From Actinomycetota bacterium (GTDB lineage: Bacteria; Actinomycetota; Acidimicrobiia; Acidimicrobiales; Ilumatobacteraceae): DNA of 49,246 bases. Position 1 is the stretch's first letter. Each line of letters starts with the position of its first letter. The DNA lies in NCBI GenBank assembly GCA_046082485.1, contig JBJTXX010000467.1, positions 1 through 49,246 of the forward strand. Reading direction: 5' to 3'. Positions 6,652 to 43,486 of the stretch are shown in pieces. Made by a program: the position numbers and the translations under genes. The notes under the pieces are model-generated. The model worked only from the letters and a program-made list of their open reading frames with translations, made no database searches and had not been told where the DNA came from.

Positions 6652-7590
6652 TCAGCGCCGGTCGGCCGAGGGTTCGGTCGGTGGCGTGCTGCGCTCGAAC
6701 GCCGCCTCGACCTCGCTGAACGACAGGGGCTCCTCGTCGTGACCGACGATCTCTGCGGTGGGAATGCGTCGATCGCGGCGATAGGTGCGCTCGGACGCGA
6801 CGGAACCGAAACGCTTGAAGAACATGTAGATCACGATGCCCCAGAGGAAGAAGCCACCGGCGATCTTCATGATCGCCCCGGCGAGCTGCTGGTCGTCAGC
6901 CGGCGAGAGACCCCACACCCTCACGGGCTGCTCGCCGTAATGGCGGTAGACGGCTCCGTCCGCGAACGTCAGCCAGGCCGCGGGCACGGTGGGCACGACG
7001 CTCTGCAGGAACAGGTAGATCATCTTGCCGCCTGCCGAGATCTGCAGTTCGGGCAGTGGGCCCACCACCGGCATCCACATCAGCGTGGCGGCGAGCACGA
7101 CGAACAGGTGCAGGCCGAAGTGCAGCGCACCGTTCGTGGTCGAGGCGTTCACCACACCCGGAACGTGGAGGATCATCACCATGACGTTGAAGATCACGCC
7201 GGCCACGACGGCCCTCGCGAAGAACCGCACCACACGGTAGGTGCGGCCCGCGCCGATCAACGTGCGCAGCAACCACTCCGGCGTGGCCATCAGCGCCAGC
7301 GGCGGGAAGAAGTAGCTGAGCATCATGTGCTGCACCATGTGCACGCTGTAGAGGTAGCCCTCGGCGATCTGGTGCACCGGCCACGTACTGGCGACGAACA
7401 GCACCACCATCGCCGCGACGAAACAGGTCACCTGCCGACGGGTCACCACCGGTTGGCCCGCCTGCACCACACCCGGCCCGATGTTGCGCACCATGTAGAC
7501 GTACGCGCCCACGAGGAACGCCACCAGCACGTACACCTCGGGGTTCGACTCGAACCTCCAGGGGTCCGCGAACGCTGCCGCGGCAGTCAT
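6652..7590 (-). CDS. ctaG: Cytochrome c oxidase assembly factor CtaG (caa3/Bacillus type membrane protein)
   Basis: 312-aa polytopic membrane protein immediately downstream of ctaF on the same strand. Blocks such as VHMVQHMML, MWMPVVGP and YLFLQSVVPTVPAAWL resemble the Caa3_CtaG family. Confidence 0.7.
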   Translation of the reverse strand: MTAAAAFADPWRFESNPEVYVLVAFLVGAYVYMVRNIGPGVVQAGQPVVTRRQVTCFVAAMVVLFVASTWPVHQIAEGYLYSVHMVQHMMLSYFFPPLALMATPEWLLRTLIGAGRTYRVVRFFARAVVAGVIFNVMVMILHVPGVVNASTTNGALHFGLHLFVVLAATLMWMPVVGPLPELQISAGGKMIYLFLQSVVPTVPAAWLTFADGAVYRHYGEQPVRVWGLSPADDQQLAGAIMKIAGGFFLWGIVIYMFFKRFGSVASERTYRRDRRIPTAEIVGHDEEPLSFSEVEAAFERSTPPTEPSADRR

Positions 7591-7597
7591 GATCGAC

Positions 7598-7921
7598 CTA
7601 GTTCTTGAAGAACTGGAAGGTGAAGAGGAACGCGATGTAGACGAGGACGGCCAGCACCAGGCCCGCGTAGAACATCAGGCTGAACACCTTGCTGTCGAAC
7701 TTCAGGTGCATGAACACCGACACGATCATGAAGAACTTGATCGCCATCATGATGAGCAGGGCCACCATGCCGACGGTCTCGAGGCTCTTGGGCCACCAGT
7801 AGGTGGAGGTCTCGAGCGCCGTCACCACTGCGAGGATGATCGCGATCTTGATGAAGTAGCGGTCGGACGGTGTGTGGTGCTCGTCGGCAGCGTGCGCTGC
7901 GTGCTCTGTTGTGGCGCTCAT
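7598..7921 (-). CDS. ctaF: Cytochrome c oxidase subunit IV (prokaryotic COX4_pro type)
   Basis: 107 aa with 3 TM helices. The sequence KIAIILAVVTALE...MAIKFFMIVSVFMHLKFD is characteristic of the small subunit IV of Bacillus-type aa3/caa3 and quinol oxidases. It lies 10 nt downstream of ctaE. Confidence 0.75.
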   Translation of the reverse strand: MSATTEHAAHAADEHHTPSDRYFIKIAIILAVVTALETSTYWWPKSLETVGMVALLIMMAIKFFMIVSVFMHLKFDSKVFSLMFYAGLVLAVLVYIAFLFTFQFFKN

Positions 7922-7931
7922 GCGGGTGACC

Positions 7932-8588
7932 TCAGACCGGGATCAGGTAGACGAGGGTGAAGATGACGACCCAGACGACGTCGACGAAGTGCCAGTAGAG
8001 GCCGACGAGTTCGACCACCTCTGCTCGATCGCCGGTGATGCGGTCACGGGTGATGATGCCGACCAGCACCAGCAGCATGATGATGCCGAGCGACACGTGC
8101 ACACCGTGGAAACCGGTGAGGGTGTAGAAGCTCGAGCCGAAGAGGCTGGTGGTGTAGCCCAGACCCTCCTGGTAGAAGGCCGTGAACTCGTAGACCTGAC
8201 CACCCACGAAGAGCGCACCGAGTGCGGCGGTGATGGTGAGCCACAGGTTGGTGTTGCGCTGGTCGTTGCGCTTCGCCGAGTTCACCGCGAGCACCATCGT
8301 CAGCGAACTCATCAGCAGGATGAAGCTGCTGACCGACGTGAGCGGGATGTCGAAGATCTGGTTCGGGCCGGGGCCACCTTCGCTGCGACCGCGGTACAGC
8401 ATGTAGGTGGAGATCAGGCCACCGAACAGCAGGCACTCGCTGCCGAGGAACAGCCACATGCCGAGCTTGTTGTTGCTCAGCCCGGTGCTGGTGACGTGGG
8501 CGCCGTGGCCCGAGTCGTGTGATGCGTGGTCCACGTCGTGGACAGCGATGTCAGCCAAGGGTCGCCAACTCCTTCGAGGGTTCGCCAC
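7932..8588 (-). CDS. ctaE: Cytochrome c oxidase subunit III (short 5-TM type)
   Basis: Contains GMWLFLGSECLLFGG, TGFHGVHVSLG and GLYWHFVDVVWVVIF. The annotated ATG gives a 38-nt overlap with ctaD. An internal GTG at 8534 would remove the overlap, so the start is uncertain. Confidence 0.9.
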   Translation of the reverse strand: MANPRRSWRPLADIAVHDVDHASHDSGHGAHVTSTGLSNNKLGMWLFLGSECLLFGGLISTYMLYRGRSEGGPGPNQIFDIPLTSVSSFILLMSSLTMVLAVNSAKRNDQRNTNLWLTITAALGALFVGGQVYEFTAFYQEGLGYTTSLFGSSFYTLTGFHGVHVSLGIIMLLVLVGIITRDRITGDRAEVVELVGLYWHFVDVVWVVIFTLVYLIPV

Positions 8589-10566
8589 CGGCCGGCGGCT
8601 CGTAATCGGTGTCGTCGGCGACCGAGGGCTCGAGGCACCAGCCGAAGATCGACAGCAGCAGCACCGCCAGACCGACGAAGCACAGCAACAGGTTGAAGAT
8701 CACGCCGTAGGCGATGATCGGCAACGACAGGGCCATCACGATCGGCCAGTACGACGGCGACGGCAGGTGGATGTGGTGATCCGCGTTCGCCTCTTCCTCG
8801 GCGAGGATCTCCTCGGCCGTGCGCACCTTCACCAGCTTGGCGCCGTCGGGCGTGTCCTGCTCCTCGTACTTCCGGTGGAAGAACTCGTCGAGGGCGTGCA
8901 CCGTCGGGATGCGGTCGAAGTTGTGCTCCTTCGGCGGACTCGCCGTGATCCACTCCAGGGTGCGGGCATCCCACGGGTCGAGCGGGGCGGCCGGCGCCTT
9001 CTTCGACGTGTGGAAGATGTTGATCACGAACAGCAGCACGCCGAGGGCGATCACGAAACTGCCGACACTCGCGACACGGTTCCAGAACGCGATGTCGAAG
9101 AAGCCCTCACCCGTGATCTTGTCCGGCCACACCACCATGCGGCGGGGCTGGCCCTGCAGACCGAGGATATGCATCGGGGCGAAGGTGAGGTTGATGCCGA
9201 AGAACATCAGCCAGAAGTTCCACTTGCCCAGCCGCTCGCTCAGCATCTTGCCGAACATCTTCGGCCACCAGAAGTAGAAGCCGGCGAACAGGCCCATCAC
9301 CGCACCACCCACGATCACGTAGTGGAAGTGGGCGACGATGTGGTACGTGTCGGTCTGCTGCGTGTCGCTGGGCGCCACGGCGTGGGTGACGCCCGAGAGA
9401 CCACCGATGGTGAACAGCACGATCACGCCGATCGAGAACATCATCGCGACGCTGTACTGCAGCTTGCCGCCCCACAGGGTGAGCGTCCAGTTGCAGATCT
9501 TCACGCCGGTGGGAATGGCGATCAGCATGGTCGCCACCGAGAACACCGCCACGCTGACGGGCCCTAGGCCGCTGGCGAACATGTGGTGGGCCCATACGCC
9601 CCAGCCGACGAAGCCGATCGCCGCACCCGAGAAGACCACGAACTTGTAGCCGAACAGCGGCTTGTGGGCGAACGTGGGAAGCACCTCGGAGATGATGCCG
9701 AAGCTCGGCAGGACGATGATGTACACCTCGGGGTGGCCGAAGATCCAGAACAGGTGCTGCCACAGCAGGGGGTCTGCGCCGGCGTTCACGTCGAAGAACG
9801 TGGCACCGAAGTTGCGCTGGAAGCTGAGCAGGAAGAGCGCCACGGTGATCACGGGCATGGCGAACAGCAGCAGGAACTGCACCACCAGCACCATCCAGGT
9901 GAACACCGGCATGTCCATCAACTTCATGCCCGGTGCACGCATGTTCAGCACCGTCACGATGAGGTTGATGGCACCGACGAGTGAGGCGATACCGGTGATC
10001 TGCAGGCCGAGCACCCAGAAGTCGATGCCGTGCGAGGGCGAGAACAGGGCGCTGCTGTTCGGGGAGTACATAAACCAGCCGCCGTCGGCCGCGCCGCCGA
10101 GGAACCACGAGGTGTTCAGGAAGATGCCGCCGAAGAGGAACAGCCAGAAGCCCAGCGCGTTGATGCGCGGGAAGGCCACGTCACGGGCGCCGACCTGCAG
10201 GGGCAGGAAGTAGTTGGCGAACGCAGCGGCCATCGGCATCACGAAGAGGAACACCATCGTCGTGGCGTGCATCGTGAACATCTCGTTGTAGAGCCCAGCG
10301 CTGAGCACCGTGTTGTCGGGGGCTGCGAGCTGCAGACGGATCAGCAGCGCCTCGATACCGCCCACCAGGAAGAAGAACAGCGCCACGGCGCCGTACATCA
10401 GGCCCAGCTTCTTGTGGTCGACGGTGAACAGCCAGCTCTTCCAGCCGGTGCTGGCGACTGGCCGACGCAGCACGCCGAGAGCCCGCGGCGTGGTGACCAC
10501 AGCGGGGGCCGAGGCACCGGCACCGACGGTGGCCGGGACTGCTGAGGGTCGTTCGATGATTGCCAT
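8551..10566 (-). CDS. ctaD: Cytochrome c oxidase subunit I (A-type heme-copper oxidase) with about 115-aa two-helix C-terminal extension
   Basis: All canonical ligand blocks are present: FTMHATTMVF (helix II His), WQHLFWIFGHPEVY (CuB His plus Tyr), WAHHMF (two CuB His) and VAHFHYV (heme a3/heme a His). Also has TVDHKKLG and DPWDARTLEW. Confidence 0.95.
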   Translation of the reverse strand: MAIIERPSAVPATVGAGASAPAVVTTPRALGVLRRPVASTGWKSWLFTVDHKKLGLMYGAVALFFFLVGGIEALLIRLQLAAPDNTVLSAGLYNEMFTMHATTMVFLFVMPMAAAFANYFLPLQVGARDVAFPRINALGFWLFLFGGIFLNTSWFLGGAADGGWFMYSPNSSALFSPSHGIDFWVLGLQITGIASLVGAINLIVTVLNMRAPGMKLMDMPVFTWMVLVVQFLLLFAMPVITVALFLLSFQRNFGATFFDVNAGADPLLWQHLFWIFGHPEVYIIVLPSFGIISEVLPTFAHKPLFGYKFVVFSGAAIGFVGWGVWAHHMFASGLGPVSVAVFSVATMLIAIPTGVKICNWTLTLWGGKLQYSVAMMFSIGVIVLFTIGGLSGVTHAVAPSDTQQTDTYHIVAHFHYVIVGGAVMGLFAGFYFWWPKMFGKMLSERLGKWNFWLMFFGINLTFAPMHILGLQGQPRRMVVWPDKITGEGFFDIAFWNRVASVGSFVIALGVLLFVINIFHTSKKAPAAPLDPWDARTLEWITASPPKEHNFDRIPTVHALDEFFHRKYEEQDTPDGAKLVKVRTAEEILAEEEANADHHIHLPSPSYWPIVMALSLPIIAYGVIFNLLLCFVGLAVLLLSIFGWCLEPSVADDTDYEPPAGGEPSKELATLG

Positions 10567-10578
10567 CGGTGGGCTCCC

Positions 10579-11817
10579 TTACTTCCGCTCGAGGAGGTAG
10601 GCGATGAGTTGGTCGATCTGATCCTCCTTGAGGTTCAGATTCGGCATGCCACGGTACTTGCCGCCCGTGGACTCGAGATTCTTGGGGTCGGCGAACATCG
10701 GCTTCATCGCCGGTGAGTTGCGCAGCCACTCACGAAGCTTCGACTCGTCGAAGCAGTCGGGCGTGACACCCTTCAGGTACATGGCACCGAACTTGTCGGG
10801 CGCGGCGTTCCACAGCGCATCACGACACTCCTCGTTGATGAGGTCGAACGTCCAGCCGGCGATGGCCGTACGGGTCATCAGGTTGGTGAGGTTCGGCGCC
10901 ACGCCCGACACGACGTAGAGGTCGGGGTCGGAGAGCACCGGGCTGCCGTCGGCGTTCTCGATGCCGTTCACCTGGTGGCACTTGCTGCAGTTCGCGATGA
11001 AGGTTCCCTCACCGGCGAGCGCCAGTTCGTCGGTCGGTGCCGCGTAAGGCTGCAGCTGGTTGTCGACCCACGCCTGGAAGTCGGCGGTGTCGAGGGCAAC
11101 GGCGGCCTGCCGCATACGGGCGTGGCTGAGGCCGCAGAACTCCGTGCACTGGCCCATGTAGAGGCCGGGCTCGTCGGCCTGCAGGCGCAGAGAGTGCAGG
11201 CGACCGGGCACCGCGTCGCGCTTGCCGTTGAGGGCGGGAATCCAGAAACTGTGGATCACGTCACGGCTGGTGATGCGCAGGATCACGGGAGTGTTGGTCG
11301 GAATCACCAACTCGCCGCTCGTGACGATCGGCTCGGGGATCTTCACGCCGCCGCACTCGCCGGTGGCGTAGTCCATCTCCCACCACCACTGCTGGCCGGT
11401 GACGTTGATCACGCATTCGGTGTCGGTCTTCTTGTCGAGTTCGAAGACGGTGATCACGGTGGGCACCGAGACACCCGCGAGGATCACTGCCGGCAGCACC
11501 GTCAGGAAGATCTCCAGCTTCGGGTTGCCGTGGGTCTGCTCGGGGATGTCCTGGCCGCGGTCCTTGAACTTCCAGAGGGTGTAGGCGACCGCCGCCAGCA
11601 CGATCACGCCCACCACACCGGCGATGTAGAACACCGGCCGCTGCAGGTTGTCGATCTTCGTTGCGTTCGGGCCCCTGGGCTCGAAGATGTCCTGCGGCGC
11701 GTTCTCGGCGCAGGCGGCAAGCACCGCCGCCACGACCGCCGCCACCATCAGGTGGGGACGGCGCCGGGGGGTGCGTATCTCGCCGTGGTTGCTCATGCTG
11801 TGTTCGCTCCGGTCCAT
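10579..11817 (-). CDS. ctaC: Cytochrome c oxidase subunit II with fused C-terminal cytochrome c domain (caa3 type)
   Basis: CuA site HSFWIPALNGK...CTEFCGLSHARM. Heme c site CSKCH with a distal RGMPNL. Two N-terminal TM helices. Start at ATG 11817 (MDRSEHSMSNH), with an alternative ATG at 11796. The 713-aa ORF upstream of this is an antisense/readthrough artefact. Confidence 0.9.
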   Translation of the reverse strand: MDRSEHSMSNHGEIRTPRRRPHLMVAAVVAAVLAACAENAPQDIFEPRGPNATKIDNLQRPVFYIAGVVGVIVLAAVAYTLWKFKDRGQDIPEQTHGNPKLEIFLTVLPAVILAGVSVPTVITVFELDKKTDTECVINVTGQQWWWEMDYATGECGGVKIPEPIVTSGELVIPTNTPVILRITSRDVIHSFWIPALNGKRDAVPGRLHSLRLQADEPGLYMGQCTEFCGLSHARMRQAAVALDTADFQAWVDNQLQPYAAPTDELALAGEGTFIANCSKCHQVNGIENADGSPVLSDPDLYVVSGVAPNLTNLMTRTAIAGWTFDLINEECRDALWNAAPDKFGAMYLKGVTPDCFDESKLREWLRNSPAMKPMFADPKNLESTGGKYRGMPNLNLKEDQIDQLIAYLLERK

Positions 11818-11819
11818 GA

Positions 11820-12968
11820 TCAGGGCACCACCACTTTGATCTCTTGCTCTTCGACCTCGGGCACCGTCAGGCGGAACGGGGTCGTGCTGGCGGCCTGGGA
11901 CTTGCTGATGCGGAAGGTCAGGAACGCCTTGCCGCCCTTCTCGATCGTCGTGGTGCAGTCTGCCTGCTCGGTTCCCTCGGTGCCATCCGTGGCCTTGAAT
12001 GTGCCCAAATGCACAGTCAGGCGGCGGGCTTCCTCGGTGCGGTTGGTGAACAGCACGTGCACGTCGGTCGAGCGCGGCACGTAGATCTCGTGGTACTCGA
12101 CGTTCGGGATCGCCGTGTTGAAGGCCACCAGCCGGTTGTCGTCGGTGAGGACGACGTTGGCGATGACATTGCTCTTCGCGGACACGCTCTGCGAGGCCTT
12201 GTGGTCGACCTCCTCGATCTCGGACTCGGGCGCCTGACCGAGGCACACCGCGGCGCTGATGTGCGCGTGCTCCTCGATGGTGCGCTGACCCGACACCGCC
12301 GAGGCGACACCGACACCCAGCATCGCCAGCAGGCCGACGGCGCTGATGCCGCCGATCGTCGTCTTCGACAGACCGCGACGGGCGGCGATCATGAAACCGA
12401 CCACCACGATGACGGCGCCGAGCAGGATGAAGGCCCAACGACCGGCGTCCTTGCTGATGGTGAGCATCAGCCGCGAGAAGCCGTAGAGCATGGCGCCGAG
12501 CACGACGGTGGCGAGCACCGGGAACTCGAGTGGATGCATGAGGCGCTTGCGCAGGCCGTCGTTGAAGGCCGCGTCGCCACTGGCGCGCTGGGCCCAGGTC
12601 TCGACCATCCACTCGACGATGGCAGCGATCAGCACCACCACGGCGACCTTGAACACCACCGGCTTGCTGACCGCGCCGACGGCCAGGCCGGCGACACTCA
12701 CCGCCGAGACCAGCGGCCACAGGCTGCGACCGACGGGCCCGCGGCCCGCAGCGCTCTGCGAAACCGCAGCTTCGTCCATGGGCGGAACGTTGCAGTCGCG
12801 AACGTAGATGTTGATGCCGGCGAGGAAGGCGAAGACAACGCCGACCGACACGAGGCCGATGGTGCCCAGCAGGCCCGTGGGCCCGCCGTTGGACATCCCG
12901 AACAGCAGCGCGCCCACGAACGAGAGCACCGTGCCGCCGAGGAACAGCTTTGAACCAGTGGTGAACAT
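11820..12968 (-). CDS. Polytopic membrane protein (about 7 TM) with beta-rich extracytoplasmic C-terminal domain; function unknown
   Basis: 382-aa ORF with high GC3. Its stop is 2 nt before the ctaC start, and its start is 10 nt after the stop of the subunit III paralogue. It has seven hydrophobic segments followed by about 150 aa of alternating beta-like sequence (VHVLFTNRTEEARRLTVHLGTF...FLTFRISKS...FRLTVPEVEEQEIKVVVP). Confidence 0.7.
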   Translation of the reverse strand: MFTTGSKLFLGGTVLSFVGALLFGMSNGGPTGLLGTIGLVSVGVVFAFLAGINIYVRDCNVPPMDEAAVSQSAAGRGPVGRSLWPLVSAVSVAGLAVGAVSKPVVFKVAVVVLIAAIVEWMVETWAQRASGDAAFNDGLRKRLMHPLEFPVLATVVLGAMLYGFSRLMLTISKDAGRWAFILLGAVIVVVGFMIAARRGLSKTTIGGISAVGLLAMLGVGVASAVSGQRTIEEHAHISAAVCLGQAPESEIEEVDHKASQSVSAKSNVIANVVLTDDNRLVAFNTAIPNVEYHEIYVPRSTDVHVLFTNRTEEARRLTVHLGTFKATDGTEGTEQADCTTTIEKGGKAFLTFRISKSQAASTTPFRLTVPEVEEQEIKVVVP

Positions 12969-12978
12969 CGGCTCCCCG

Positions 12979-13560
12979 TTACTTCGTCACGTAAACCACG
13001 AACCACACCAGTGCGAAGATCGCACTGAAGCAGTACCAATACAGGGCGTGCGCCGCCACGACCTCGCGGTCGGTGTCACGGCCGCTGAGATAGCGGAACG
13101 CAGTGATGGCGCTGAAGAGCACGCCGACGATCATGAGGGCGGCGGTCACCCCGGTGACGGCGTAGAACATGATCTGGTAAGTGCCGCCGTTGGCAGCGAG
13201 GCCCATCTGACCCCAGATGTAGGCCTGGGCGTTGATGAGCGCCACACCCAGCACCAGCACGAGGAACAGTGCCGTGCCCGTGTGCGGGCGGTCATCGCGC
13301 TTGGCCGAGTACACCGCCCACTGGGCGAAGATGCACAACGGCAGCAACGCGATCAGCATGACGTTCGCCGGCACGAGCGGCACGTTGGTGCCCTTGGGCA
13401 CCCAAGCACCGTCGGGGCCGTTCAGGCCCGCCTCGCGGAAACGCAGGAACAGGGCGAGCATGCCGCCGATCAGTGCCACCGCAGCGGCGCAGGCGAGCGC
13501 GGCGCCCACCAGCAACTGGCGGCGCGGCTCGGGGGCAGGGGCCGGGGGAAGTGCGAGCAT
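12979..13560 (-). CDS. Divergent heme-copper oxidase subunit III family paralogue
   Basis: 193 aa with 5 TM. The C-terminal HALYWYCFSAIFALVWFVVY parallels the canonical LYWHFVDVVWVVIF of ctaE in this window. The start ATG overlaps the stop of the upstream subunit I paralogue (ATGA at 13558-13562). Confidence 0.7.
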   Translation of the reverse strand: MLALPPAPAPEPRRQLLVGAALACAAAVALIGGMLALFLRFREAGLNGPDGAWVPKGTNVPLVPANVMLIALLPLCIFAQWAVYSAKRDDRPHTGTALFLVLVLGVALINAQAYIWGQMGLAANGGTYQIMFYAVTGVTAALMIVGVLFSAITAFRYLSGRDTDREVVAAHALYWYCFSAIFALVWFVVYVTK

Positions 13561-15212
13561 CAGGCCTCACTCCGGTTCGAGGGCTTCAGGTCGAGCAGGG
13601 GCTCTGCCGACTTCACCACGTGGATGTCGACGAAGTTGTGCTCCGGCGCAGGCGAGGTGGTGGCCCACTCGAGCGTCTGGCCGTTCCACGGGTCGTCACC
13701 GGCGCGCTCGCCCTTGGCGGCCGAGCGCCACTCGAGGGCGACGAATGCCAGCACCGTCAGCAGCACCAGCAGGTGACCGATGCCGCTGAGGGCGTTCCAC
13801 AGGCCCGACGGGCCGGAGTACGAGAAGTTCGTGGGGCCGGGCAGGCCGGCCTCCACGGCGGGCAGGGCCTCACCGGGCTGATCGGCGAAACCGGCGATCA
13901 TCATCGGCAGGCTCGCCAACACGCCACCGAGGAACCCCAGCAGGCCCAGCGGCAGCGTCGCCTTCATCGGCATCACCCGGCCGCTCCACTTCGGCATCCA
14001 GTGCGCCACGGCACCGAGACCGGCGAGCACCGAGCCATAGACGACCGCCAACCATGCGCCTTCCTCGAAGGTCGTGCCGACGAGGCCGGCATCACCGACG
14101 TGGTTCAGCACTCCCGCAGCGGCACCGAGCAGCACCAGCAGGGCGCCGTGCAGGGCGAACACGAGCGGGGCCCCGATCGCAGGCTTGCTGCGAAGGGCGC
14201 CTGCGGTGAGCGCCACCGAACCGAGCACACCCAGCAGCGGCAACAGGTGCACGAGAGCGAACGGCACGAGGTCGGACACCTTCTGTCCTGCGGTGAGACC
14301 CGAGAACCCGGCACGCAACAGCACCGGTGCCTGCACCGCAGCGGCGAACATCGCCGTGCCGACCAGACCGATGGCGCCGAGCAGCACCCCGCGGGGCCGC
14401 AGGCGTGTGTTGGTCGCCGTGGCCACCACGTCGGCGAGGAAGCCGAGCGCAGGGAGGGCGAAGACCAGTGTGGTCGGCTGCGTCAGACCGAAGCCCACCC
14501 AGCGGCCGAGCGCCCGGTTCCCGCTCAGTTCGCTGACGCTCGGGTAGCGGTGGGCGAGATACACGTAGAGCAGATCGCCGATCACGATCGGCAGCACGAC
14601 CAGCAGTGCCAGCGACGACACCAGCACCGCCCACGAGAACCAAGGGATGCGACGCATGTTCATGCCGGGCGCACGGGTCGTGAGCACCGTGGCCGCGAGC
14701 GAGACGGCCGTGGCCACGAGGCCGAGCGCCACGAGGCCGAACGACAGGGTGAACAGGTCGACGAACCGGCGGTTGCCACCGTTCGGGCCGCCGTTCGCAG
14801 CGATCGCAATCACGGCGAGCACGGCGCCGATCGCCCAGGTCCAGAAGCCAGCCGCAGCCACCCTCGGGAAGGCGTTCGAACGGGCGCCCACCTGCAGCGG
14901 GACCACCACGAGTGCGATGCCCACCAGCAACGGCAGCGCCACCAGGAAGGTGAGGCCGAAGCGGTACAGCGAGAACAGCTGGGTGATCGACTCGACGGGC
15001 AGCAGCTCGCTGCCCGAATCGGCGCGCTCGAATGCCAGCAGGGCGCCCACCACCACGGCGCCGAGCAGCGCCAACGTCGCCAGACTCATGAACAGCCGGC
15101 CGATCTTCTTGTGGTCGGTGGAGGTGATCCAGTCAGCCACGGTCGCAAGTCCGCCACCTGCGGAGGTGGCGGGTGCGTGGGTGTCGACGGTTGTCATGGG
15201 CAACGGACTCAT
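13560..15212 (-). CDS. Heme-copper oxidase subunit I-like paralogue lacking the canonical heme/CuB histidine ligands
   Basis: Retains the superfamily blocks STDHKKIG, PLQVGARSNAFPR, TRAPGMNMRRIPWFSW, HWMPKW and DPWNGQTLEWATTSPAPEHNF. It has no His between DHKKIG and AFPR, no GHPEVY, no HH and no HFH block. The start is ambiguous: ATG at 15212 (MSPLPM...) or 15197 (MTTVDT...). Confidence 0.8.
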   Translation of the reverse strand: MSPLPMTTVDTHAPATSAGGGLATVADWITSTDHKKIGRLFMSLATLALLGAVVVGALLAFERADSGSELLPVESITQLFSLYRFGLTFLVALPLLVGIALVVVPLQVGARSNAFPRVAAAGFWTWAIGAVLAVIAIAANGGPNGGNRRFVDLFTLSFGLVALGLVATAVSLAATVLTTRAPGMNMRRIPWFSWAVLVSSLALLVVLPIVIGDLLYVYLAHRYPSVSELSGNRALGRWVGFGLTQPTTLVFALPALGFLADVVATATNTRLRPRGVLLGAIGLVGTAMFAAAVQAPVLLRAGFSGLTAGQKVSDLVPFALVHLLPLLGVLGSVALTAGALRSKPAIGAPLVFALHGALLVLLGAAAGVLNHVGDAGLVGTTFEEGAWLAVVYGSVLAGLGAVAHWMPKWSGRVMPMKATLPLGLLGFLGGVLASLPMMIAGFADQPGEALPAVEAGLPGPTNFSYSGPSGLWNALSGIGHLLVLLTVLAFVALEWRSAAKGERAGDDPWNGQTLEWATTSPAPEHNFVDIHVVKSAEPLLDLKPSNRSEA

Positions 15213-15310: not shown

Positions 15311-16258
15311 TCAGACACCGTGACGCACGAGCACGTCGACGGTCATCGCCGTGAAGAGCAGCGTCACGTACGTGATCGAGTAGCCGAAGACCCGCATCGA
15401 CCTTTGCGGCGTGGGGTTCCGGCCGAGGTCGATGGTGCCCCACAGGAACAGTGCGCCGAGCACGACGGCCGAGATGCCGTACACCGGACCGAGCGACGCG
15501 ACCGGCCACAGCACCAGCGTGCCGGCCACCATGACAGCGGTGTAGAGCACCATCTTGCGCACCGTCACCTCGAGGGTGCTGACGGCCGGCAGCATCGGCA
15601 CGCTGGCCGCCCGGTAGTCGTCGGCGTAGCGGATGGCCAGTGCCCAGAAGTGCGGAGGGGTCCAGAGGAACATCACGACGAACAGCACGACCGGAGTCCA
15701 CGTCACGTCGTTGCGCACCGCCGCCCAGCCCACCAGCACCGGCACTGCGCCTGCGGCACCTCCGATGACGATGTTCTGGGTGCTCGTGCGCTTGAGCCAG
15801 AGCGTGTAGACGAAGACGTAGAACAGCATCGCGGAGAGCGCCAGCACGGCCGACAGCAGGTTCGCCCACTTCCAGAGCACGCCGAATGCGACGACCTCGA
15901 GCAGGATCGCGAAGACCAACGCCTCGCGCGGCCCCACGAGGCCGGTCACGAGGGGGCGGCCCTGGGTGCGCGGCATCAGGCTGTCGATGTCTCTGTCGAC
16001 CACCATGTTGATGGCGTTCGCGCCGCCGGCGGCCAGCGTGCCGCCCACGAGGGTCACGATCAGCAGGCTCCACGACGGCCAACCCCGTTCGGCCAACACC
16101 ATCGTGGGTACGGTGGTGATGAGCAGCAGTTCGATGATGCGCGGCTTTGTGAGCGCAACGAAACCGCCGATGCGGGTGCTCGGGGTGCGGCGACCGCCGT
16201 GCACCACGCCACCGGGTGCGAGCCGCGAAGGCACGATGGGGCGGGCGCCGACAGCCAT
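15311..16258 (-). CDS. ctaB: Protoheme IX farnesyltransferase (heme O synthase)
   Basis: UbiA-family motifs are present: ALTKPRIIELLL, GGANAINMVVDRDID and WTPPHFWALA. I chose the start at the internal ATG 16258 (MAVGARP...), because the upstream 40 codons are Arg/Pro-rich. Confidence 0.9.
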   Translation of the reverse strand: MAVGARPIVPSRLAPGGVVHGGRRTPSTRIGGFVALTKPRIIELLLITTVPTMVLAERGWPSWSLLIVTLVGGTLAAGGANAINMVVDRDIDSLMPRTQGRPLVTGLVGPREALVFAILLEVVAFGVLWKWANLLSAVLALSAMLFYVFVYTLWLKRTSTQNIVIGGAAGAVPVLVGWAAVRNDVTWTPVVLFVVMFLWTPPHFWALAIRYADDYRAASVPMLPAVSTLEVTVRKMVLYTAVMVAGTLVLWPVASLGPVYGISAVVLGALFLWGTIDLGRNPTPQRSMRVFGYSITYVTLLFTAMTVDVLVRHGV

Positions 16259-16377
16259 GGGGTCATCGTAGGGTGCCGATGCGGACGGCACCACTTCGCC
16301 ACGCGCTGCCTGCGTCGGGGGACGAGAGTCACATCGGTTCCGTGCTCGCGGCGGCAGCGGGCGACGGCGACGGCACA

Positions 16378-16683
16378 ATGGGGCACATGCCCACGGTGCT
16401 GGAACCGGTTCGAACCGAACAACCCGACGCCGACACCACCACCGTTCCCGACCGCCCGTGGCTGGTGCTGGTGTGGAACGACCCGATCAACCTGATGAGC
16501 TACGTCACCCTGGTGCTGCAGAAGGTGTTCGGCTACAGCCGTGAGAAGGCGACGTCGCTGATGCTCGACGTGCACCACAGGGGTCGGGCCGTGGTCAGCA
16601 GCGGCACCCGCGAGAAGGCCGAGATCGACGTGTTCAGGCTGCACGAGCACGGGTTGTGGGCCACGATGCAACAGGACGACTGA
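16378..16683 (+). CDS. clpS: ATP-dependent Clp protease adaptor ClpS
   Basis: 101 aa. PWLVLVWNDPINLMSYVTLVLQKVFGYSREKATSLMLDVHHRGRAVV is the ClpS core. An alternative ATG lies 9 nt downstream. Confidence 0.9.
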   Translation: MGHMPTVLEPVRTEQPDADTTTVPDRPWLVLVWNDPINLMSYVTLVLQKVFGYSREKATSLMLDVHHRGRAVVSSGTREKAEIDVFRLHEHGLWATMQQDD

Positions 16684-16749: not shown

Positions 16750-17448
16750 TCAGACGCTGACGGTCTCGCGGTGGTGCTCGACGGCCAGCACCACGTCGTC
16801 GGCCTTCTTGGAGGCGAAGGCGTGGATGAAGCCGGCAAGCGACAGGGCGAACAGCACGATGGCGGCGATGATCGTCACCCACGCGGCCTGACCGGCGCGC
16901 TCGCCGAAGATGCTGAACCCGTAGGTGGTCAGCAGCAGACCGCGGAGTGTCTCACCGGTCTGCAGCGTGCCCCGCAGGCCCTTGGCGCCGTCGAGTGCCT
17001 TCTGCGCCTCGTCGATCTTGGCCTGGTCGCCCGATTCCTGGGCGGCGGTCAGGGCATCGACCAGCGAGACCTCGGTGCCGGGACGCACGTAGGCGCCCAT
17101 CGTGGCGTAGGTGGCGCCCTCGTAACCGGCGGCCTTCGCTGACTCCTCCATGTGGAGGGCGATGTACGAGCTGGCATAGCACTCGGCCTTCTTGCCCGAG
17201 TCGAGCACCTGACCCTTCGTGGCATCGCCGACGGTGGTGCCGTACTCGACGAGGCAGGGGGCAGCCTTCTCCTCGTCGGACAGGAACTTGGCCGGCGTGA
17301 AGTTGATCTTCTGCGCGGTCAGTTCGGTGCGGACGTAGTTGTCCGCGAAGCTCTTCTGGTTGTTCAGGATCAGGCCGACGACGAGCAGCAGCACGCTGAA
17401 GACCACGCCGCCGATGCTGAACGCCACGTCGAGAGTGCGACGCTTCAT
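16750..17448 (-). CDS. Two-TM membrane protein with about 170-aa extracytoplasmic domain; function unknown
   Basis: ATG at 17448 is preceded by a strong SD (GGAGGAAACACA-ATG on the minus strand). The N-terminal TM is VAFSIGGVVFSVLLLVVGLIL and the C-terminal TM is AAWVTIIAAIVLFALSLAGFI. The loop contains two Cys. Confidence 0.7.
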   Translation of the reverse strand: MKRRTLDVAFSIGGVVFSVLLLVVGLILNNQKSFADNYVRTELTAQKINFTPAKFLSDEEKAAPCLVEYGTTVGDATKGQVLDSGKKAECYASSYIALHMEESAKAAGYEGATYATMGAYVRPGTEVSLVDALTAAQESGDQAKIDEAQKALDGAKGLRGTLQTGETLRGLLLTTYGFSIFGERAGQAAWVTIIAAIVLFALSLAGFIHAFASKKADDVVLAVEHHRETVSV

Positions 17449-17683
17449 TGTGTGTTTCCTCCTTGCGACCGTCGGGGACTCGGGCCGCTGGAGCCATCCT
17501 CGTCGTCGAAACGGCACCGGCGACAGGGACCCACAGCCCCTCCTGTTCGGGACTTTGGGCCGCGCGACGTCGACGACGGCCGCAAACGTGCCGCTGAGCA
17601 GGGGTGATACACATCAAGACAGCATCAACCGGTGGTGCCGACGGGAGGATCGAAAGCACTCTCCGTGAGTATTGCGGCGTATA

Positions 17684-17712
17684 TTGACACCGAGAGTGTT
17701 CACGGGTACCGT
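17684..17712 (+). promoter_or_regulatory. Candidate housekeeping-sigma promoter for the FtsH-like gene
   Basis: TTGACA at 17684-17689, a 17-nt spacer, then TACCGT (TAnnnT) at 17707-17712. A GGAGG SD lies 6 nt before the ATG at 17740. This is a pattern match only. Confidence 0.3.
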
Positions 17713-17739
17713 GCCCTCCAGCAACCCCGGAGGCACACC

Positions 17740-19479
<1,740 letters not shown>

Positions 19480-19497: not shown

Positions 19498-20256
19498 GTG
19501 AGCCTGTTCCGCCGACGGCGACAGCGGCCCGTGCCCGACGAGCGCATCGCGCACGCGGTGCCACGATGGACACCCTCGTGGGGTGCCCTCACACCCGACG
19601 AGCGAGACGTGCTGGTGCAGTACTCGGCGGCCCTGGCCGACGGCTTCCGCTGGGAGGCCGCTCGCGGCTTCCGTCTCACCGACGAGGTCCGGGTGGCCAT
19701 CGGAGCCCAGGCGGCGCTGCTGCTGCTCGGACTCGACGACGGCCTCGACAACTACGAGCAGGTCACCTCGGTGATCGTGCACGCCACCACCATCGTGCGG
19801 ACCGGCGAGCACGCATGGGGCGACGGACTCGTCGCCGAGGGCGACGACCCGTTGATCGGTGAGGCCATCCATCGAGGCCCCGTCGTGCTGGCGTGGGACG
19901 CCGTGGTGCAGCAGGCGCTGCAGCCCCAACGGGGCGAGAACGTGGTGCTGCACGAGTTCGCGCACCGACTCGACATGCTCGACGGTCTCAGCGACGGCAC
20001 GCCGCCCCTGGCCGATGCGGGCGAACTCGCCCGATGGGTCACCACGTGCCGGGCAACGCTGGAGCGTCTGCGTGCCCACACCGCACCGTCGGTGCTGCGT
20101 GCCTACGCCGAGACGAACCCGGCCGAGTTCTTCGCGGTCGCCACCGAGGTGTTCTTCACCCGGCCGGTGGCTCTGCGCGAGGAAGACCCCTCGCTCTACG
20201 ACGTGCTGCGCTCGTACTACGGGCAGGACCCTGCCACCCGACTGCAGTTCACCTGA
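19498..20256 (+). CDS. MtfA-like zinc peptidase (M90 family)
   Basis: GTG start 18 nt after the FtsH-like stop. Has an HEFAH zinc motif followed by AETNPAEFFAVATEVFF, matching the M90/MtfA pattern. Confidence 0.7.
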   Translation: MSLFRRRRQRPVPDERIAHAVPRWTPSWGALTPDERDVLVQYSAALADGFRWEAARGFRLTDEVRVAIGAQAALLLLGLDDGLDNYEQVTSVIVHATTIVRTGEHAWGDGLVAEGDDPLIGEAIHRGPVVLAWDAVVQQALQPQRGENVVLHEFAHRLDMLDGLSDGTPPLADAGELARWVTTCRATLERLRAHTAPSVLRAYAETNPAEFFAVATEVFFTRPVALREEDPSLYDVLRSYYGQDPATRLQFT

Positions 20257-30627: not shown

Positions 30628-31170
30628 TCAGGCGACCGCACGACGGGCCTGGGCGACGCCGATCAGGCGAACGGTGACAGGGTAGATGCAGGCGCCGACG
30701 AGCACGGCGAAGGCGCGGGAGAAGATCGTCGAGCCGCTGTCGGTGCCCGACTGGTAGGCGTGCACCGCGGTGAGTACCACGGCGGGAATCGAGAGGAGGT
30801 GCACCGCATGCCAGGCCTTGCGCGGCAGCCGACGGCGCACCCGGGCCACCGACGGCAGCACCACGACCAGGAACATCCAGAAGGCCAGCACGCCCCACCC
30901 GATGCTCCAGCCGACCGAGCCGCTCGGCACGAACAGGTCGACGAACCCGATGCCGGTCTCGGTGTCGAGGAACGACACGACCATGTGCAGCGCCACGAAC
31001 GCGAGGGTCAGACCGCCGAGCCAGTTGTGCAGGGCCAGCCACCAGTTCGGCTTCAGTCGGTTGCCCGTGTTGCGGGCGGAGAAGAACAGCCCCCACACCA
31101 GCGACGCCACGGAGAGCACCGCCGCAACGATGCCGGTCGACCGGGTCAGGGGGTACCACCACGAACTCAC
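30628..31170 (-). CDS. Ferric reductase-like transmembrane (di-heme b, MsrQ/YedZ-like) protein
   Basis: 180 aa with about 5-6 TM. It has spaced membrane His residues (LALHNWLGG, FVALHMVV, AWHAVHLL, TAVHAY). It sits directly upstream of the FMN-binding and ApbE genes. Confidence 0.65.
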   Translation of the reverse strand: MSSWWYPLTRSTGIVAAVLSVASLVWGLFFSARNTGNRLKPNWWLALHNWLGGLTLAFVALHMVVSFLDTETGIGFVDLFVPSGSVGWSIGWGVLAFWMFLVVVLPSVARVRRRLPRKAWHAVHLLSIPAVVLTAVHAYQSGTDSGSTIFSRAFAVLVGACIYPVTVRLIGVAQARRAVA

Positions 31171-31194: not shown

Positions 31195-33414
31195 CTAGGG
31201 CCGGTTCGCGGGAAGGTGAAAGTTGCGTGAGAGCAATTCCTCGGCCGCGACCTCGATCTCGGCCTCGCTGAGCAGCACCAGCTTCGCTGCATCACCCAAC
31301 GGGATGAAGCTGTCCTTGCTGGTCACGCGGGCGAGGTGGCCGATGTAGCCGGCATCGACCAGCTCGGCCACGATGCCCTCCCCCACTCCGCCCGACCGGC
31401 GGGTCTCGTCGACCACCAGCGTGCAGCAGGTGGCGTTCGCCTCGCGGACGATGTCGTCGACCGGCAGCGGGCACACCCACCTCAGGTCCACCACCCGCAC
31501 CCCCACTCCGCGCTGCGCAAGGCGGTGCGCCACGCGCAGCGACATGAACAGGCCGTTGCCGAAGGTGAGGATGGTGAGGTCGTTGCCGTCGCCGTGGGTG
31601 CGTGCCCGGCCGATGGGCACGTGCACCACGGGGTCGGCGGCGGCCAGCCACTGCTGGTCACCACGCTCGTGCAGGTCGGCGGTGTGGTAGCGGGCGATGG
31701 GCTCCACCATCACGCCGACGGTTCCATCGACCCTGGCCGCAGCGACCAGCGTGCGCAGCATGCCGGCTGCGTCGTCGGGAAGGGCGGGCACCCCCACGAC
31801 CACGCCGGGGATGTCGCGCAGCACGGTCAGCGAGTCGTCGTTGTGGAAGTGACCTCCGAAGCCCTCCTGGTAACCGAGACCGGCGATGCGCACCACCATG
31901 CCGTTGCGGTACTGCCCGTTCGAGAAGAACTGCAGCGTCGCGGCCTCACCGCGCAACTGGTCCTCCGCGTTGTGCAGGTAGGCGAGGTACTCGATCTCAG
32001 CAATGGGCAGCAGACCGCTGACCGCGGCCCCAAGGGCGACACCAAGGATCGACGTCTCGTCGAGGAGCGTGTCGAACACCCGGGCCGCGCCGACCTGGGC
32101 CAGCAGTCCCTTCGTCACGCCGTAGACACCACCCTTGGCAGCCACGTCCTCGCCGAACAGCAGCACGTCGGTCTGCTCACGCAGCAGGTCTCCGAGCGTG
32201 CCGTTGATCGCCTGGGCGAGCGTCAGGCGCGGGGCATCCTCGGCGGCCGGTGCCGCAGCCGTCGTGGCCGCTCGTTCGACGGCATCCGGTTGCCGCGGGG
32301 CCAGCGGGGCCATCACCTGGGCGGCCGTCGCCAACTGTGGACGTTCGGCCACCTCCTCTGCAGTGGAATGGACGAGGTCGCGGAGTTCGTCGTGACGGGC
32401 GAGCAGGTCATCGAGCGACACACCGTGGTCGAGCAGGCGAGCCGCCGTCGCCGTGATCGGGTCGAGCGCGGCCTCGGCGCGGATCTCGGCAGCCGAACGG
32501 TAGGCGGCCTCCATGTCGGTGCCCGCGTGGCCGCCGTAGCGCACCGTCCGCAGGTGCAGGAATGCCGGTCGACCGGTGGTGCGCACCCAGTCGCCCAGTT
32601 CGCGGCTCAGAGCCAGCACCGCATCGGGCTCGGTGCCGTCGACGCGCTCGTAGCGCAGGTGCGGGCGGCTGCCGTACGCGGACTCCACCCAACCCTGCGG
32701 GGTGCGCACGCTGATGCCCAGGCCGTTGTCCTCACAGAGGAACAGCAGCGGAAGGGGTAGGCGCTGATGGGCGCAGTGCAGGGCGGTGTTCACCGCGCCC
32801 GTCGCCACCGAGTGGTTCGCCGAGGCGTCACCGAACGAGCAGACGGCCAGGGCATCATCAGGCCACGGGGAGGCGACCCCCAACCGACGGGCCCTCCCGA
32901 TAGCGAACGCGACGCCCACCGCACGCGGAAGGTGCGACGCAATGGTCGAGGTCTGCGGGATGACGGCCAGGTCGTGACGGCCGAACACCTTGTGGCGGCC
33001 ACCGGCGATCGGCTCGTCGGCTGCCGCGACCACCCCGGCGAGGATGTCGCGAACACCCTCCACGCCGCTGCGGGCGAGATAGAAGCCACCGCTGCGGTAG
33101 TGCAGCAGGGCGGGGTCGGTCGGACGCAGGCCCATTGCAACGGCTGCGTTGCTCTCGTGCCCCGAGGAACCGATCGTGTAGTAGCCCTTGCCCCTGCCGC
33201 GCAGCCAGCGCGCAGCGAGGTCGGTGTGACGACTTGCGACCTGCACGTCGAACAGCGTGCGGAGGTCGTCTGGCGACACGACCGGCGCCGATCCCGCTGC
33301 ACGGCCACGGAGGGCCTCCAGCGAGTCGATCAACTGCCGCTCGAGCGGAGGACGGTCAGGTGCAGCCACCCGGGAAGTCTGCCAGACGACACCTGTGAGC
33401 GGACTTTGGGCCAC
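31195..33414 (-). CDS. Fused alpha-beta E1 component of a 2-oxoacid dehydrogenase (TPP-dependent)
   Basis: 739 aa. The N-terminal half has E1-alpha features (GSSGHESNAAVA, FGDASANHS). The C-terminal half has E1-beta/transketolase-like features (VFDTLLDETSILGVALGAA, and a pyrimidine-binding plus C-terminal domain). Confidence 0.8.
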   Translation of the reverse strand: MAQSPLTGVVWQTSRVAAPDRPPLERQLIDSLEALRGRAAGSAPVVSPDDLRTLFDVQVASRHTDLAARWLRGRGKGYYTIGSSGHESNAAVAMGLRPTDPALLHYRSGGFYLARSGVEGVRDILAGVVAAADEPIAGGRHKVFGRHDLAVIPQTSTIASHLPRAVGVAFAIGRARRLGVASPWPDDALAVCSFGDASANHSVATGAVNTALHCAHQRLPLPLLFLCEDNGLGISVRTPQGWVESAYGSRPHLRYERVDGTEPDAVLALSRELGDWVRTTGRPAFLHLRTVRYGGHAGTDMEAAYRSAAEIRAEAALDPITATAARLLDHGVSLDDLLARHDELRDLVHSTAEEVAERPQLATAAQVMAPLAPRQPDAVERAATTAAAPAAEDAPRLTLAQAINGTLGDLLREQTDVLLFGEDVAAKGGVYGVTKGLLAQVGAARVFDTLLDETSILGVALGAAVSGLLPIAEIEYLAYLHNAEDQLRGEAATLQFFSNGQYRNGMVVRIAGLGYQEGFGGHFHNDDSLTVLRDIPGVVVGVPALPDDAAGMLRTLVAAARVDGTVGVMVEPIARYHTADLHERGDQQWLAAADPVVHVPIGRARTHGDGNDLTILTFGNGLFMSLRVAHRLAQRGVGVRVVDLRWVCPLPVDDIVREANATCCTLVVDETRRSGGVGEGIVAELVDAGYIGHLARVTSKDSFIPLGDAAKLVLLSEAEIEVAAEELLSRNFHLPANRP

Positions 33415-35264: not shown

Positions 35265-35756
35265 TCAGTCGCCGCTGATCGCGTGCACGGTCACCTCCAG
35301 CAGCCAACTGGTGTAGTTGTACAGCTGGTGTTCGGCCACCATCGGGTGGTCGTCGTCAACGTCGGTGGGGTCGTGGTCCTCGCCCACGTCGAGCAGCGTG
35401 CCCAGCACCAGACGCACATTGTTCAGCGACTGCATGAATCCCGTGATCTCGCCGTCGGTGAGGGGTCGACCGGCCCGAAGAGCATCGGTGACCGCATCCA
35501 TGCCGCCGAGACGTGAGGTCATCAACTCCTCGCGCATGTAGCGCTGGTACTCGGCGTCGGCCTCGTCGTCGAGGTGGTAGGCCGGCGGGAAGAGCCGCCG
35601 CACCAGCGGGGCCACCTGCGGGTCGTCGCTCTGCAGCAGGCCCCGCAACTCGGCCAGCAGCCGCAGCAGCAGCGAGATGTCCTGCTCGCCGAGACGCACG
35701 ACGTAGCCCTGGTCGGTGCGTTCCACAACGGGACGGTTGAACCAACGACGAGGCAT
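35265..35756 (-). CDS. DUF2017-like protein (actinobacterial ClpS-associated family)
   Basis: Start at ATG 35756 (MPRRWFNRPVVERTDQGYVVRL). It is an acidic 163-aa protein. The pattern ISLLLRLLAELRGLL...RLFPPAY...DAEYQ..M.EEL fits my recollection of DUF2017. Confidence 0.55.
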   Translation of the reverse strand: MPRRWFNRPVVERTDQGYVVRLGEQDISLLLRLLAELRGLLQSDDPQVAPLVRRLFPPAYHLDDEADAEYQRYMREELMTSRLGGMDAVTDALRAGRPLTDGEITGFMQSLNNVRLVLGTLLDVGEDHDPTDVDDDHPMVAEHQLYNYTSWLLEVTVHAISGD

Positions 35757-35784
35757 CGGGTGCGACGGTAGCGGGGCCGCGGCC

Positions 35785-41891: not shown

Positions 41892-41924
41892 AGTATCCGT
41901 GGCAAGGGGTTGCCCGCCTGTCGG

Positions 41925-43415: not shown

Positions 43416-43486
43416 CGCCGACCCTGTCCGGCTGCGCGTTGCGTCAGCCCCGTCTTCGTGCGCCCCATGAGGCCATCGTAGGCGGA

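Follow-up and report, generated by a model that had tools for sequence, protein, structure and literature searches.

A cofactor-free module in the cta operon of Acidimicrobiia

The DNA examined here, a 49,246-nt stretch of an Ilumatobacteraceae genome (assembly GCA_046082485.1, contig JBJTXX010000467.1; called "the window" below, with all coordinates given as positions in it), encodes a caa3-type cytochrome oxidase and, inside the same cta operon, a three-gene module without cofactors, a "ghost" of the oxidase whose first product represents a dead family of subunit I. The first gene of the module specifies a 545-aa homologue of subunit I of the A-family heme-copper oxidases (HCOs) that has no heme or CuB ligand (I'; 13560–15197, minus strand). 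The other two genes encode a subunit III-like protein (III') and a membrane protein of 382 residues (p382). We found that this cofactor-free module is conserved across the class Acidimicrobiia, that it is under purifying selection, and that its linkage to an A-type oxidase holds whether the loci are collected with the module or with the oxidase as the anchor.

The open reading frame (ORF) of I' lies on the minus strand and, when read from the ATG at 15212, spans 13560–15212 (550 aa). Two upstream starts are available, at 15212 (ATG) and 15251 (GTG); because the homologues begin at Met6, the likely gene is 13560–15197. A preliminary description of this DNA, made from the letters alone, had placed the protein at 13560–15212 without naming a strand. 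Those positions do contain the ORF, but the strand has to be added, and 15197 is a better start than 15212. That description had also called I' a high-GC3 ORF (GC3 being the G+C content at third codon positions) in an operon context, and rightly so: its GC3 is 0.88, similar to that of the adjacent genes, and it lies within the cta operon.

Sequence profiles agree with the original proposal that I' is a full-length paralogue of HCO subunit I. The protein matches Pfam COX1 (PF00115) with 109.6 bits (cutoff 34.8, E=2e-31), and it matches TIGR02891, the equivalog model of CtaD, from end to end (profile positions 1–501 of 504). Its score against the latter, 175.3 bits, is under the equivalog cutoff of 670.75, which the CtaD of the window exceeds with 688 bits. 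When the I' and CtaD families were compared using HHalign, the match had 100% probability (E=3e-52). An AlphaFold2 (AF2) model of I' (mean pLDDT, the per-residue confidence, 79; pTM, the predicted template-modelling score, 0.85) superposes in Foldseek on all PDB structures of A-family subunit I, with TM-scores of ~0.77–0.82. Judged by this model, I' keeps the 12-helix fold of subunit I; by homology and by its 12 transmembrane (TM) helices, it belongs to the subunit I proteins of the HCO superfamily (PF00115). The motifs that it has in common with real subunit I are DHK, PLQVGAR..AFPR, RAPGM, WxPK and DPW..TLEW..SPP..NF, and all of the motifs quoted when the protein was first described are present in its translation.

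Loss of the ligand and channel residues

Does such a protein retain any part of the active site? The preliminary description, which rested on an alignment by eye, had reported that all six His ligands of the hemes and CuB are absent, together with the cross-link Tyr. This claim was upheld, at the profile and structure levels, in four independent comparisons: HMMER alignment to the CtaD of M. smegmatis (6adq_F), multiple alignment with MAFFT (120 relatives, then ~110), HHalign, and superposition of the AF2 model. In the HMMER alignment, SLY falls under TMH and GAWLA under AHFHY, and no His falls under GHPEVY or AHH. In the first MAFFT alignment, which held 120 relatives and the CtaD of the window, the six His ligands are replaced in I' and all of its relatives (121/121 dead-family sequences). 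The same is true of the cross-link Tyr, the equivalent of Glu286, the K-channel Lys, the D-channel Asp and both of the Arg residues that bind the heme propionates. These losses of ligand and channel residues recur in ~110 full-length representatives clustered at 50% identity. The Tyr of HPEVY is exchanged for Leu, the Glu for Thr, the Asp for Ser, the Lys for Ser or Ala, and the Arg-Arg pair for Gly-x.

One detail of the original alignment needs correction. It had set FWIFGHPEVY against WVGFGLTQPTT and stated that no His or Tyr occurs there in any register. The statement stands, but the register does not: we prefer QPTTL under HPEVY because the Pro then falls on the Pro and the segment fits a motif found throughout the superfamily, QPQ(V/I)(Y/F). 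With the ligand positions empty by profile and structure comparison, I' would be unable to bind heme a, heme a3 or CuB in the canonical way, as had been argued.

The His residues of LAHRYP, FALHGAL, LNHVGD and VAHWMP were considered as alternative ligands and rejected, as they are variable or specific to a clade. Those in VAHWMP and FALHGAL vary inside the dead family. H366 (of NHVGD) is invariant in the close clade only (at least 57% identity) and is not conserved across the superfamily, where the sole conserved His column is that of the N-terminal DHK motif. The residues that are invariant throughout the superfamily (PLQ, FPR, RAPGM, W.PK and TLEW) are all present in canonical subunit I as well. 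Because these are the only such invariants, no new common active site is visible, and that candidate was likewise discarded.

How should the protein be classified? Of the six invariant His residues that mark an HCO, namely two ligands of the low-spin heme, a single one of the high-spin heme and three of CuB/FeB, none is found in I'. As an A-family oxygen reductase of the CtaD type it falls short of the TIGR02891 cutoff and is without the Tyr, channel and Arg-pair residues. The same columns are devoid of His when I' is compared with the nitric oxide reductase (NOR) types of HCO (cNOR, qNOR, eNOR, sNOR and gNOR), which are generally defined by His ligands of hemes b and b3 and by an FeB/CuB site of three His. 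Since I' has none of the functional features that define the HCO family, it should be annotated neither as an oxidase nor as a NOR.

Distribution, ligand states and origin of the family

A word-indexed search with I' at E<=1e-10 returned 608 clusters (90% identity), of which the top 120 are 57–100% identical to I'; the named sources among these are mostly metagenome-assembled genomes (MAGs) of Ilumatobacteraceae or Actinomycetota, with one labelled Acidobacteria. In a scan of GTDB with one genome per species, 482 stretches were found to encode a relative of I'; the best 80 of them all come from Acidimicrobiia MAGs, a few of which are mislabelled. An exhaustive profile search of 1.84 billion representatives at 50% identity gave 401 matches at E<=1e-30. 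The best 150 of the 401 score at least 220 bits, while the CtaD of the window scores 166 bits on the same dead-family profile. By this measure, the wider dead superfamily has no fewer than 150 clusters at 50% identity. A profile built from its distant members drew 958 clusters, and the named ones are almost all from Acidimicrobiales, with one from Jiangellaceae. Intact, full-length relatives of I' range from 35 to 100% identity and occur in hundreds of genomes. Indeed, the survey of orthologues that had been proposed for this protein yielded hundreds of relatives with the same ligand losses.

We tallied the ligand states of 348 full-length members of the superfamily. In 230 of them, including the whole clade of the window, there is no His at any ligand column. 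Another 56 have only the two axial His ligands of the low-spin heme, in TM2 and TM10, and 21 have only the His of TM2. The CuB triad occurs in none of the 348. Certain replacements recur, namely QPQ(V/I)(Y/F) for HPEVY and AWAQP for WAHH. The bis-His subclade, exemplified by a protein encoded at L088:9001–10635 (P0269) and comprising 55 others, may still bind one heme, to judge by the residues kept.

In a neighbor-joining tree rooted on real CtaD, the bis-His types are the first to branch and lie closest to the root, and the window's clade is derived; this tree is tentative, since it was built from distances and contains long branches. When the dead family was compared with its candidate parents, the co-resident CtaD lineage scored 126 bits, the CtaD of M. 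smegmatis 115 bits, and another aa3 type 80 bits. An origin from an actinobacterial-type aa3 oxidase instead of the local caa3 enzyme is not supported, as both the profile and phmmer comparisons favour the co-resident CtaD, though by a small margin (126 vs. 115 bits). The make-up of the superfamily suggests a stepwise degeneration that followed an ancient duplication within the lineage. The ligands of CuB and heme a3 would have been lost first, in all members of the superfamily; the bis-His site of the low-spin heme would have been lost later and repeatedly, including in the clade of the window.

Selection on the module

Intact reading frames and the rate of amino-acid change both bear on whether I' could be a pseudogene, for which frameshifts or relaxed selection had been named as signs. 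We estimated dN/dS by the NG86 method, taking as reference the closest orthologous locus, L003, which has 89% amino-acid identity and a dS (0.55) that is unsaturated. The value for I' is 0.117, which denotes purifying selection; it compares with 0.119 for ctaB, 0.096 for ctaC, 0.18 for III' and 0.16 for p382. More distant pairs gave 0.23–0.37 vs. 0.10–0.17 for ctaD, with dS close to saturation. Because dS is saturated there, the value from a distant orthologue (0.34, from L001) is to be read as an upper bound. The ORF of I' is intact, and the best 80 of the 482 GTDB stretches match it over essentially the full length. Neither a frameshift nor relaxed selection was seen in I'. A pseudogene is ruled out by the omega of 0.12, the intact ORFs in hundreds of genomes, the patterned conservation and the synteny.

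Where conservation lies in I'

We assigned the topology of I' from hydropathy, from the known ligand positions in TM2, 6, 7, 8 and 10, and from the N-in orientation that is established for subunit I. Comparison of the consensus sequences of the dead family and of real CtaD shows that the cytoplasmic loops and termini are 43% identical (49/113), the TM helices 24% (69/291) and the periplasmic loops 17% (18/109). The cytoplasmic loops differ significantly from the periplasmic ones (Fisher p=1.8e-5). Conservation within the dead family follows the same order (0.77, 0.64 and 0.46, respectively), whereas within real CtaD it is nearly uniform (0.87, 0.89 and 0.86). The most diverged helices are TM6–8, the site of the former binuclear centre, with 9–22% identity. 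Conservation of I' is concentrated on the cytoplasmic loops that it has in common with real subunit I, and the periplasmic face and the helices of the former binuclear centre drift freely.

The partner proteins III' and p382

III' (193 aa; 12979–13560, minus strand) always adjoins I' across the loci. It matches Pfam COX3 (PF00510) with 34.3 bits (cutoff 23.8, E=3e-8) and covers positions 13–189 of 190 in the model NF050119 (aa3_CtaE_Actin), with a score of 40.8 bits that is under the cutoff of 190. HHalign aligned it to the CtaE family with 98.1% probability (E=1e-13). Profile homology thus puts III' in the cytochrome oxidase subunit III family (PF00510), and on this basis we regard it as genuinely homologous to subunit III. 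The start codon of III' and the stop codon of I' share nucleotides (ATGA), an arrangement from which translational coupling of the two genes is to be expected.

p382 (11820–12968, minus strand) combines an N-terminus that resembles subunit IV with ~3 TM helices and a domain of cupredoxin fold. The N-terminal ~125 residues are similar to the actinobacterial subunit IV (PF12270, profile positions 5–126 of 132). The match is weak for the protein of the window (20.4 bits), but an orthologue in L089 scores 29.9, above the cutoff of 26.9. HHalign also connects p382, weakly (E=5e-4), with an extension of the real CtaD: the C-terminal ~85 residues of that protein (8551–8800, minus strand) form a two-helix element that matches PF12270 with 28.5 bits at residues 587–646. 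Because the operon also encodes a separate COX4_pro protein, the oxidase seems to contain subunit IV elements of two kinds.

The C-terminal domain of p382 was modelled by AF2 as a beta-sandwich (pLDDT ~80), and its best PDB matches in Foldseek are cupredoxins (E ~1e-4). It contains no invariant His or Met. There are two invariant Cys residues, C338 inside the cupredoxin domain and C242 just upstream, and they may form a disulfide. The positive-inside pattern and the helix count would put the domain outside the cell. We considered whether p382 could be a bona fide subunit II and rejected the idea: only the cupredoxin fold and the topology favour it, there is no match to Pfam COX2, and the HHalign probability against the CtaC family is 0.3%. 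The CuA cupredoxin motif of subunit II (PF00116; H..CxExCxxxHxxM) is not present in p382.

In view of these homologies, I', III' and p382 mirror subunits I, III and IV (plus II) of an aa3 oxidase without a cofactor site. Pfam and NCBIfam returned only COX1, COX3 and Cyt_c_ox_IV for the three proteins; homology to the assembly factors Surf1, CtaG, Sco, PCuAC, CtaA or CtaB was not found, nor did these databases hold a model specific for I' or p382.

The operon and its linkage to the oxidase

Nine minus-strand genes stand in a row from ctaB to ctaG, with intergenic gaps of 10–100 nt. The first, ctaB (heme O synthase; 15311–16378), matches NF003349 (393 bits) and TIGR01473 (322 bits), both above cutoff; its true start is probably ~120 nt downstream of 16378, since orthologues are ~315 aa long. 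The genes of I', III' and p382 follow, and then the oxidase genes. Of the latter, ctaC (~10579–11742) encodes a subunit II with a fused cytochrome c, as in caa3 types (TIGR02866, 195 bits, above cutoff; CxxCH motif CSKCH); its start is approximate and possibly lies up to ~70 nt upstream. Next comes ctaD (8551–10566), the gene of the real subunit I with all ligands (Pfam COX1, 510 bits; TIGR02891, above cutoff as given earlier). The row is completed by ctaE for the real subunit III (7932–8588; Pfam COX3, E=9e-22), ctaF for a Bacillus-type subunit IV (COX4_pro; 7598–7921; PF03626, 29.5 bits, cutoff 28.9) and ctaG for an assembly factor of the Caa3_CtaG type (6652–7590; PF09678, E=1.6e-42). Divergent from ctaB on the plus strand is clpS (16216–16683; PF02617, E=3.5e-23), which occupies the same place in loci L001–L004 and L088–L090. 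A search for internal promoters or terminators that would split the operon gave nothing convincing, only weak consensus matches inside coding sequence. Judged by this arrangement, the ghost genes are transcriptionally embedded between ctaB and ctaCDEFG. A link to the bc complex was also sought, and no qcr genes were found inside the window.

Is this arrangement general? The order ctaB-I'-III'-p382-ctaC-D-E-F-G was found, up to the contig ends, in nearly all of 84 loci anchored on the ghost genes. Members only 35–40% identical to I' keep the same gene order, with ctaA and clpS divergently upstream. In the reverse direction, we examined metagenome loci anchored on CtaD: 41 of the 43 with at least 5.5 kb of upstream sequence contain the whole module, and in all of the shorter contigs it is visible as far as each extends. 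The two exceptions (L130 and L150) are copies of ctaD in loci without a recognisable ctaC or ctaE. These copies (L130:7923–10013 and L150, ~7947–9941) are 66–72% identical to the CtaD of the window, and no recognisable ctaC, ctaE or ghost gene occurs within their 18-kb loci. On inspection, that of L130 is a stand-alone ORF of 696 aa; L150 was judged by profile scan only.

In two Acidimicrobiia MAGs (L037:12718–17486 and L065:11227–15637), the module precedes a different, aa3-type oxidase, consisting of a COX2 without cytochrome c, a COX1 37% identical to the CtaD of the window, a COX3, and Sco or PCuAC. The third ghost gene of L065 encodes a 155-aa IV-like part alone, without the cupredoxin domain.

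Other genes in the window

The window contains three components of the N-degron pathway: ClpS, a DUF2017 protein (35265–35873, minus strand) and a Leu/Phe-tRNA protein transferase (37331–37999, plus strand). The adjacency of clpS and ctaB is constant in all related loci, and the DUF2017 gene adjoins clpS in L088–L090. On the plus strand, a gene for an FtsH-like AAA+/M41 protease (17632–19479) is followed by one for an M90 (glucose-regulated) metallopeptidase (19498–20256). Both are conserved near the cta operon in the close relatives L003 and L004, and a link to quality control of the oxidase as a membrane protein is possible. Between the FtsH-like gene and clpS lies the gene of a 255-aa protein (16750–17517, minus strand) that has no Pfam or NCBIfam match and recurs in many related loci with 39–93% identity.

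Farther away, a minus-strand cluster at 39984–44575 resembles a small cassette for modification or biosynthesis; its genes specify a type I phosphodiesterase/sulfatase-like protein, a B12-binding radical SAM enzyme and a nucleotidyltransferase (NTP_transf_5) that is uncharacterised. A 180-aa ferric-reductase-like transmembrane protein with an MsrQ-type domain (30628–31170, minus strand) adjoins a 739-aa single-chain E1 dehydrogenase (31195–33414, minus strand) in which the alpha and beta parts are fused.

What the module may do

The best supported model, to which we give an even chance, is that the non-catalytic set of I', III' and p382 is a partner of the oxidase, with a role in its structure or assembly. 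In this model, the three proteins would form a subcomplex in the membrane, produced at a constant ratio to the real caa3 oxidase. The subcomplex would act as a pseudo-dimer partner, or as a scaffold that presents the cytoplasmic surface of subunit I; the ghost module itself would be neither an O2 or NO reductase nor a proton pump. We infer co-assembly of the ghost proteins with CtaC, CtaD and CtaE from the gene linkage and the translational coupling. A bolder version, that the main terminal oxidase of Acidimicrobiia is an obligate pair of a catalytic caa3 unit and a cofactor-free ghost unit (I'-III'-IV'/cupredoxin), is a tentative proposal that would more probably fail than hold.

Several observations weigh against a structural partnership. 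The 56 bis-His members among the 348 hint that heme binding mattered at least ancestrally, and the tree in which they branch first is tentative for the reasons given above. The module evolves ~3 times faster than ctaD (48–88% vs. 73–93% identity); a stoichiometric subunit that is tightly packed would not usually change so fast, though CydB, which also evolves rapidly, is a precedent. Because of L037 and L065, the partner is not strictly a caa3 enzyme and the cupredoxin domain is dispensable. The conservation of the cytoplasmic face could come from folding constraints alone, without a common partner. Finally, the TM part of p382 was modelled with low confidence (pLDDT <60).

A first alternative gives I' a part in the handling of heme O or heme A: the protein would transiently hold the farnesylated heme in its former pockets and pass it to nascent CtaD, as a functional analogue of Surf1. 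The position of its gene directly downstream of ctaB in all loci would suit this role, as would the divergently adjacent ctaA (heme A synthase) of L088 and L090, the conserved cytoplasmic face shared with subunit I, and the early-branching lineages that keep exactly two axial low-spin His residues (56/348). The 230 of 348 members without a His at any ligand position, which include the window's whole clade, speak against it. Moreover, the His of TM2 has been replaced variably (by Y, Q, E or A), even the bis-His members are without the propionate-binding Arg pair, and a chaperone has no obvious need for its own subunit III and IV/cupredoxin partners. We consider this account unlikely.

Could the module instead have acquired a new function altogether on its emptied 12-TM scaffold, e.g., as a channel, a transporter, a binder of lipid or quinone, or a sensor, and owe its place in the operon only to co-regulation with aerobic respiration? 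Strong purifying selection without a catalytic residue would fit, and so would the polar residues within or close to the membrane core that are invariant in the close clade (R79, H366 and E378-E379, along with an NGGPNGGN loop) and the ability of the module to precede a different type of oxidase. These clade-specific residues, however, are not conserved superfamily-wide, where the invariants are only those of real subunit I, and the canonical proton-path residues are gone. An oxidase-related role is favoured because the module and the A-type oxidase genes are strictly linked, whichever of them serves as the anchor, and we rate a new function as quite improbable.

A redox enzyme in which heme, metal or both are bound by unusual ligands (Tyr, Glu, Met, Lys or a His at a non-homologous position) is a far poorer prospect. 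A Tyr does replace the TM2 His in I' and 46 of the 121 relatives, the close clade conserves H317 and H366, and TM10 contains an invariant EE pair. Across the superfamily none of them is conserved, the partner cupredoxin domain is without Cu ligands, no electron entry site (CuA, heme c or quinol site) is recognisable, and the helices of the former binuclear centre, TM6–8, are the least conserved part of I'.

A functionless, decaying relic, which the ~3-fold faster evolution relative to ctaD and the loss of all catalytic residues might have suggested, is effectively refuted by an omega of 0.12 at unsaturated dS, intact ORFs in hundreds of genomes with a GC3 of 0.88, conserved synteny and translational coupling, and conservation that is patterned by topology.

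Comparison with known oxidase systems

I' resembles CtaD/CoxA (A1 type, caa3/aa3; PF00115, TIGR02891) in its full-length homology, its predicted 12-TM fold and its cytoplasmic-loop motifs, and it is likewise encoded beside subunit III- and IV-like genes in a cta operon. It differs in the absence of all six His ligands, of the cross-link Tyr, of the residues of the D and K channels and of the propionate Arg pair, in its ~3-fold higher rate of evolution and in a periplasmic face that is not conserved. III' aligns end to end with CtaE (NF050119) but scores far below the cutoff. The N-terminus of p382 aligns with CtaF (PF12270), only near the cutoff, and its ~3 extra TM helices and cupredoxin-fold domain have no counterpart in CtaF.

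Variant HCOs (cNOR, qNOR, eNOR, sNOR, gNOR and the NOD-like enzymes) keep the axial His of both hemes and a three-His metal site, and are altered only in channel or cross-link residues. They belong to the same superfamily as I' and have altered active sites, whereas I', set apart by these generally known family features, retains nothing of the active site. To our knowledge, the six His residues are treated as the defining signature of HCOs, and every described variant family keeps them.

CydB has few or none of the heme ligands. The logic of the ghost module resembles that of CydA and CydB and of CydAA', and the nearest analogue is a duplication within an oxidase superfamily whose paralogues co-associate. 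In the bd superfamily of cytochromes, a single enzyme (CydAA') brings paralogous subunits together, and cydB has diverged strongly and is considered to evolve faster than cydA (bioRxiv 10.1101/2021.01.16.426971). The folds and superfamilies are unrelated, however. The association of the bd subunits has been demonstrated and their pair is the minimal enzyme, while the real caa3 oxidase already has a complete set of subunits, and the association of the ghost proteins with it is inferred from genes.

The author of the preliminary description was not aware of a function on record for a protein of this type. In agreement with this, there is no specific NCBIfam or Pfam model and we found no description: the full-text literature searched, to which most subscription journals do not belong, does not describe a ligand-less HCO subunit I, and term searches in PMC9145763 and 10.1101/2020.03.01.968255 did not find one. 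The ghost set is a real and conserved non-catalytic variant of the HCO system that is apparently undescribed. The preliminary description had been incomplete in that it did not include the proton-channel losses, the three-gene module, the spread across Acidimicrobiia or the bis-His subclade.

Implications

The module shows that the HCO scaffold has a selectable role that is independent of redox chemistry, and its relatives provide a natural series for the loss of cofactors: the full enzyme, the bis-His proteins and those with no ligand. It also bears on annotation. Relatives of I' currently carry labels such as "cbb3-type cytochrome c oxidase subunit I" and "cytochrome o ubiquinol oxidase subunit 1", which inflate the oxidase repertoires inferred for the abundant Acidimicrobiia of freshwater, soil and wastewater. 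Should the tentatively proposed obligate pair be real, it would be the first HCO paralogue kept solely as a set of pseudoenzyme subunits, in a relation parallel to that of CydB to CydA, and the bis-His clades would record how an oxidase was stripped of its metals stepwise while its scaffold was kept. For Acidimicrobiia, the finding suggests that the architecture or biogenesis of the oxidase involves a component not recognised so far.

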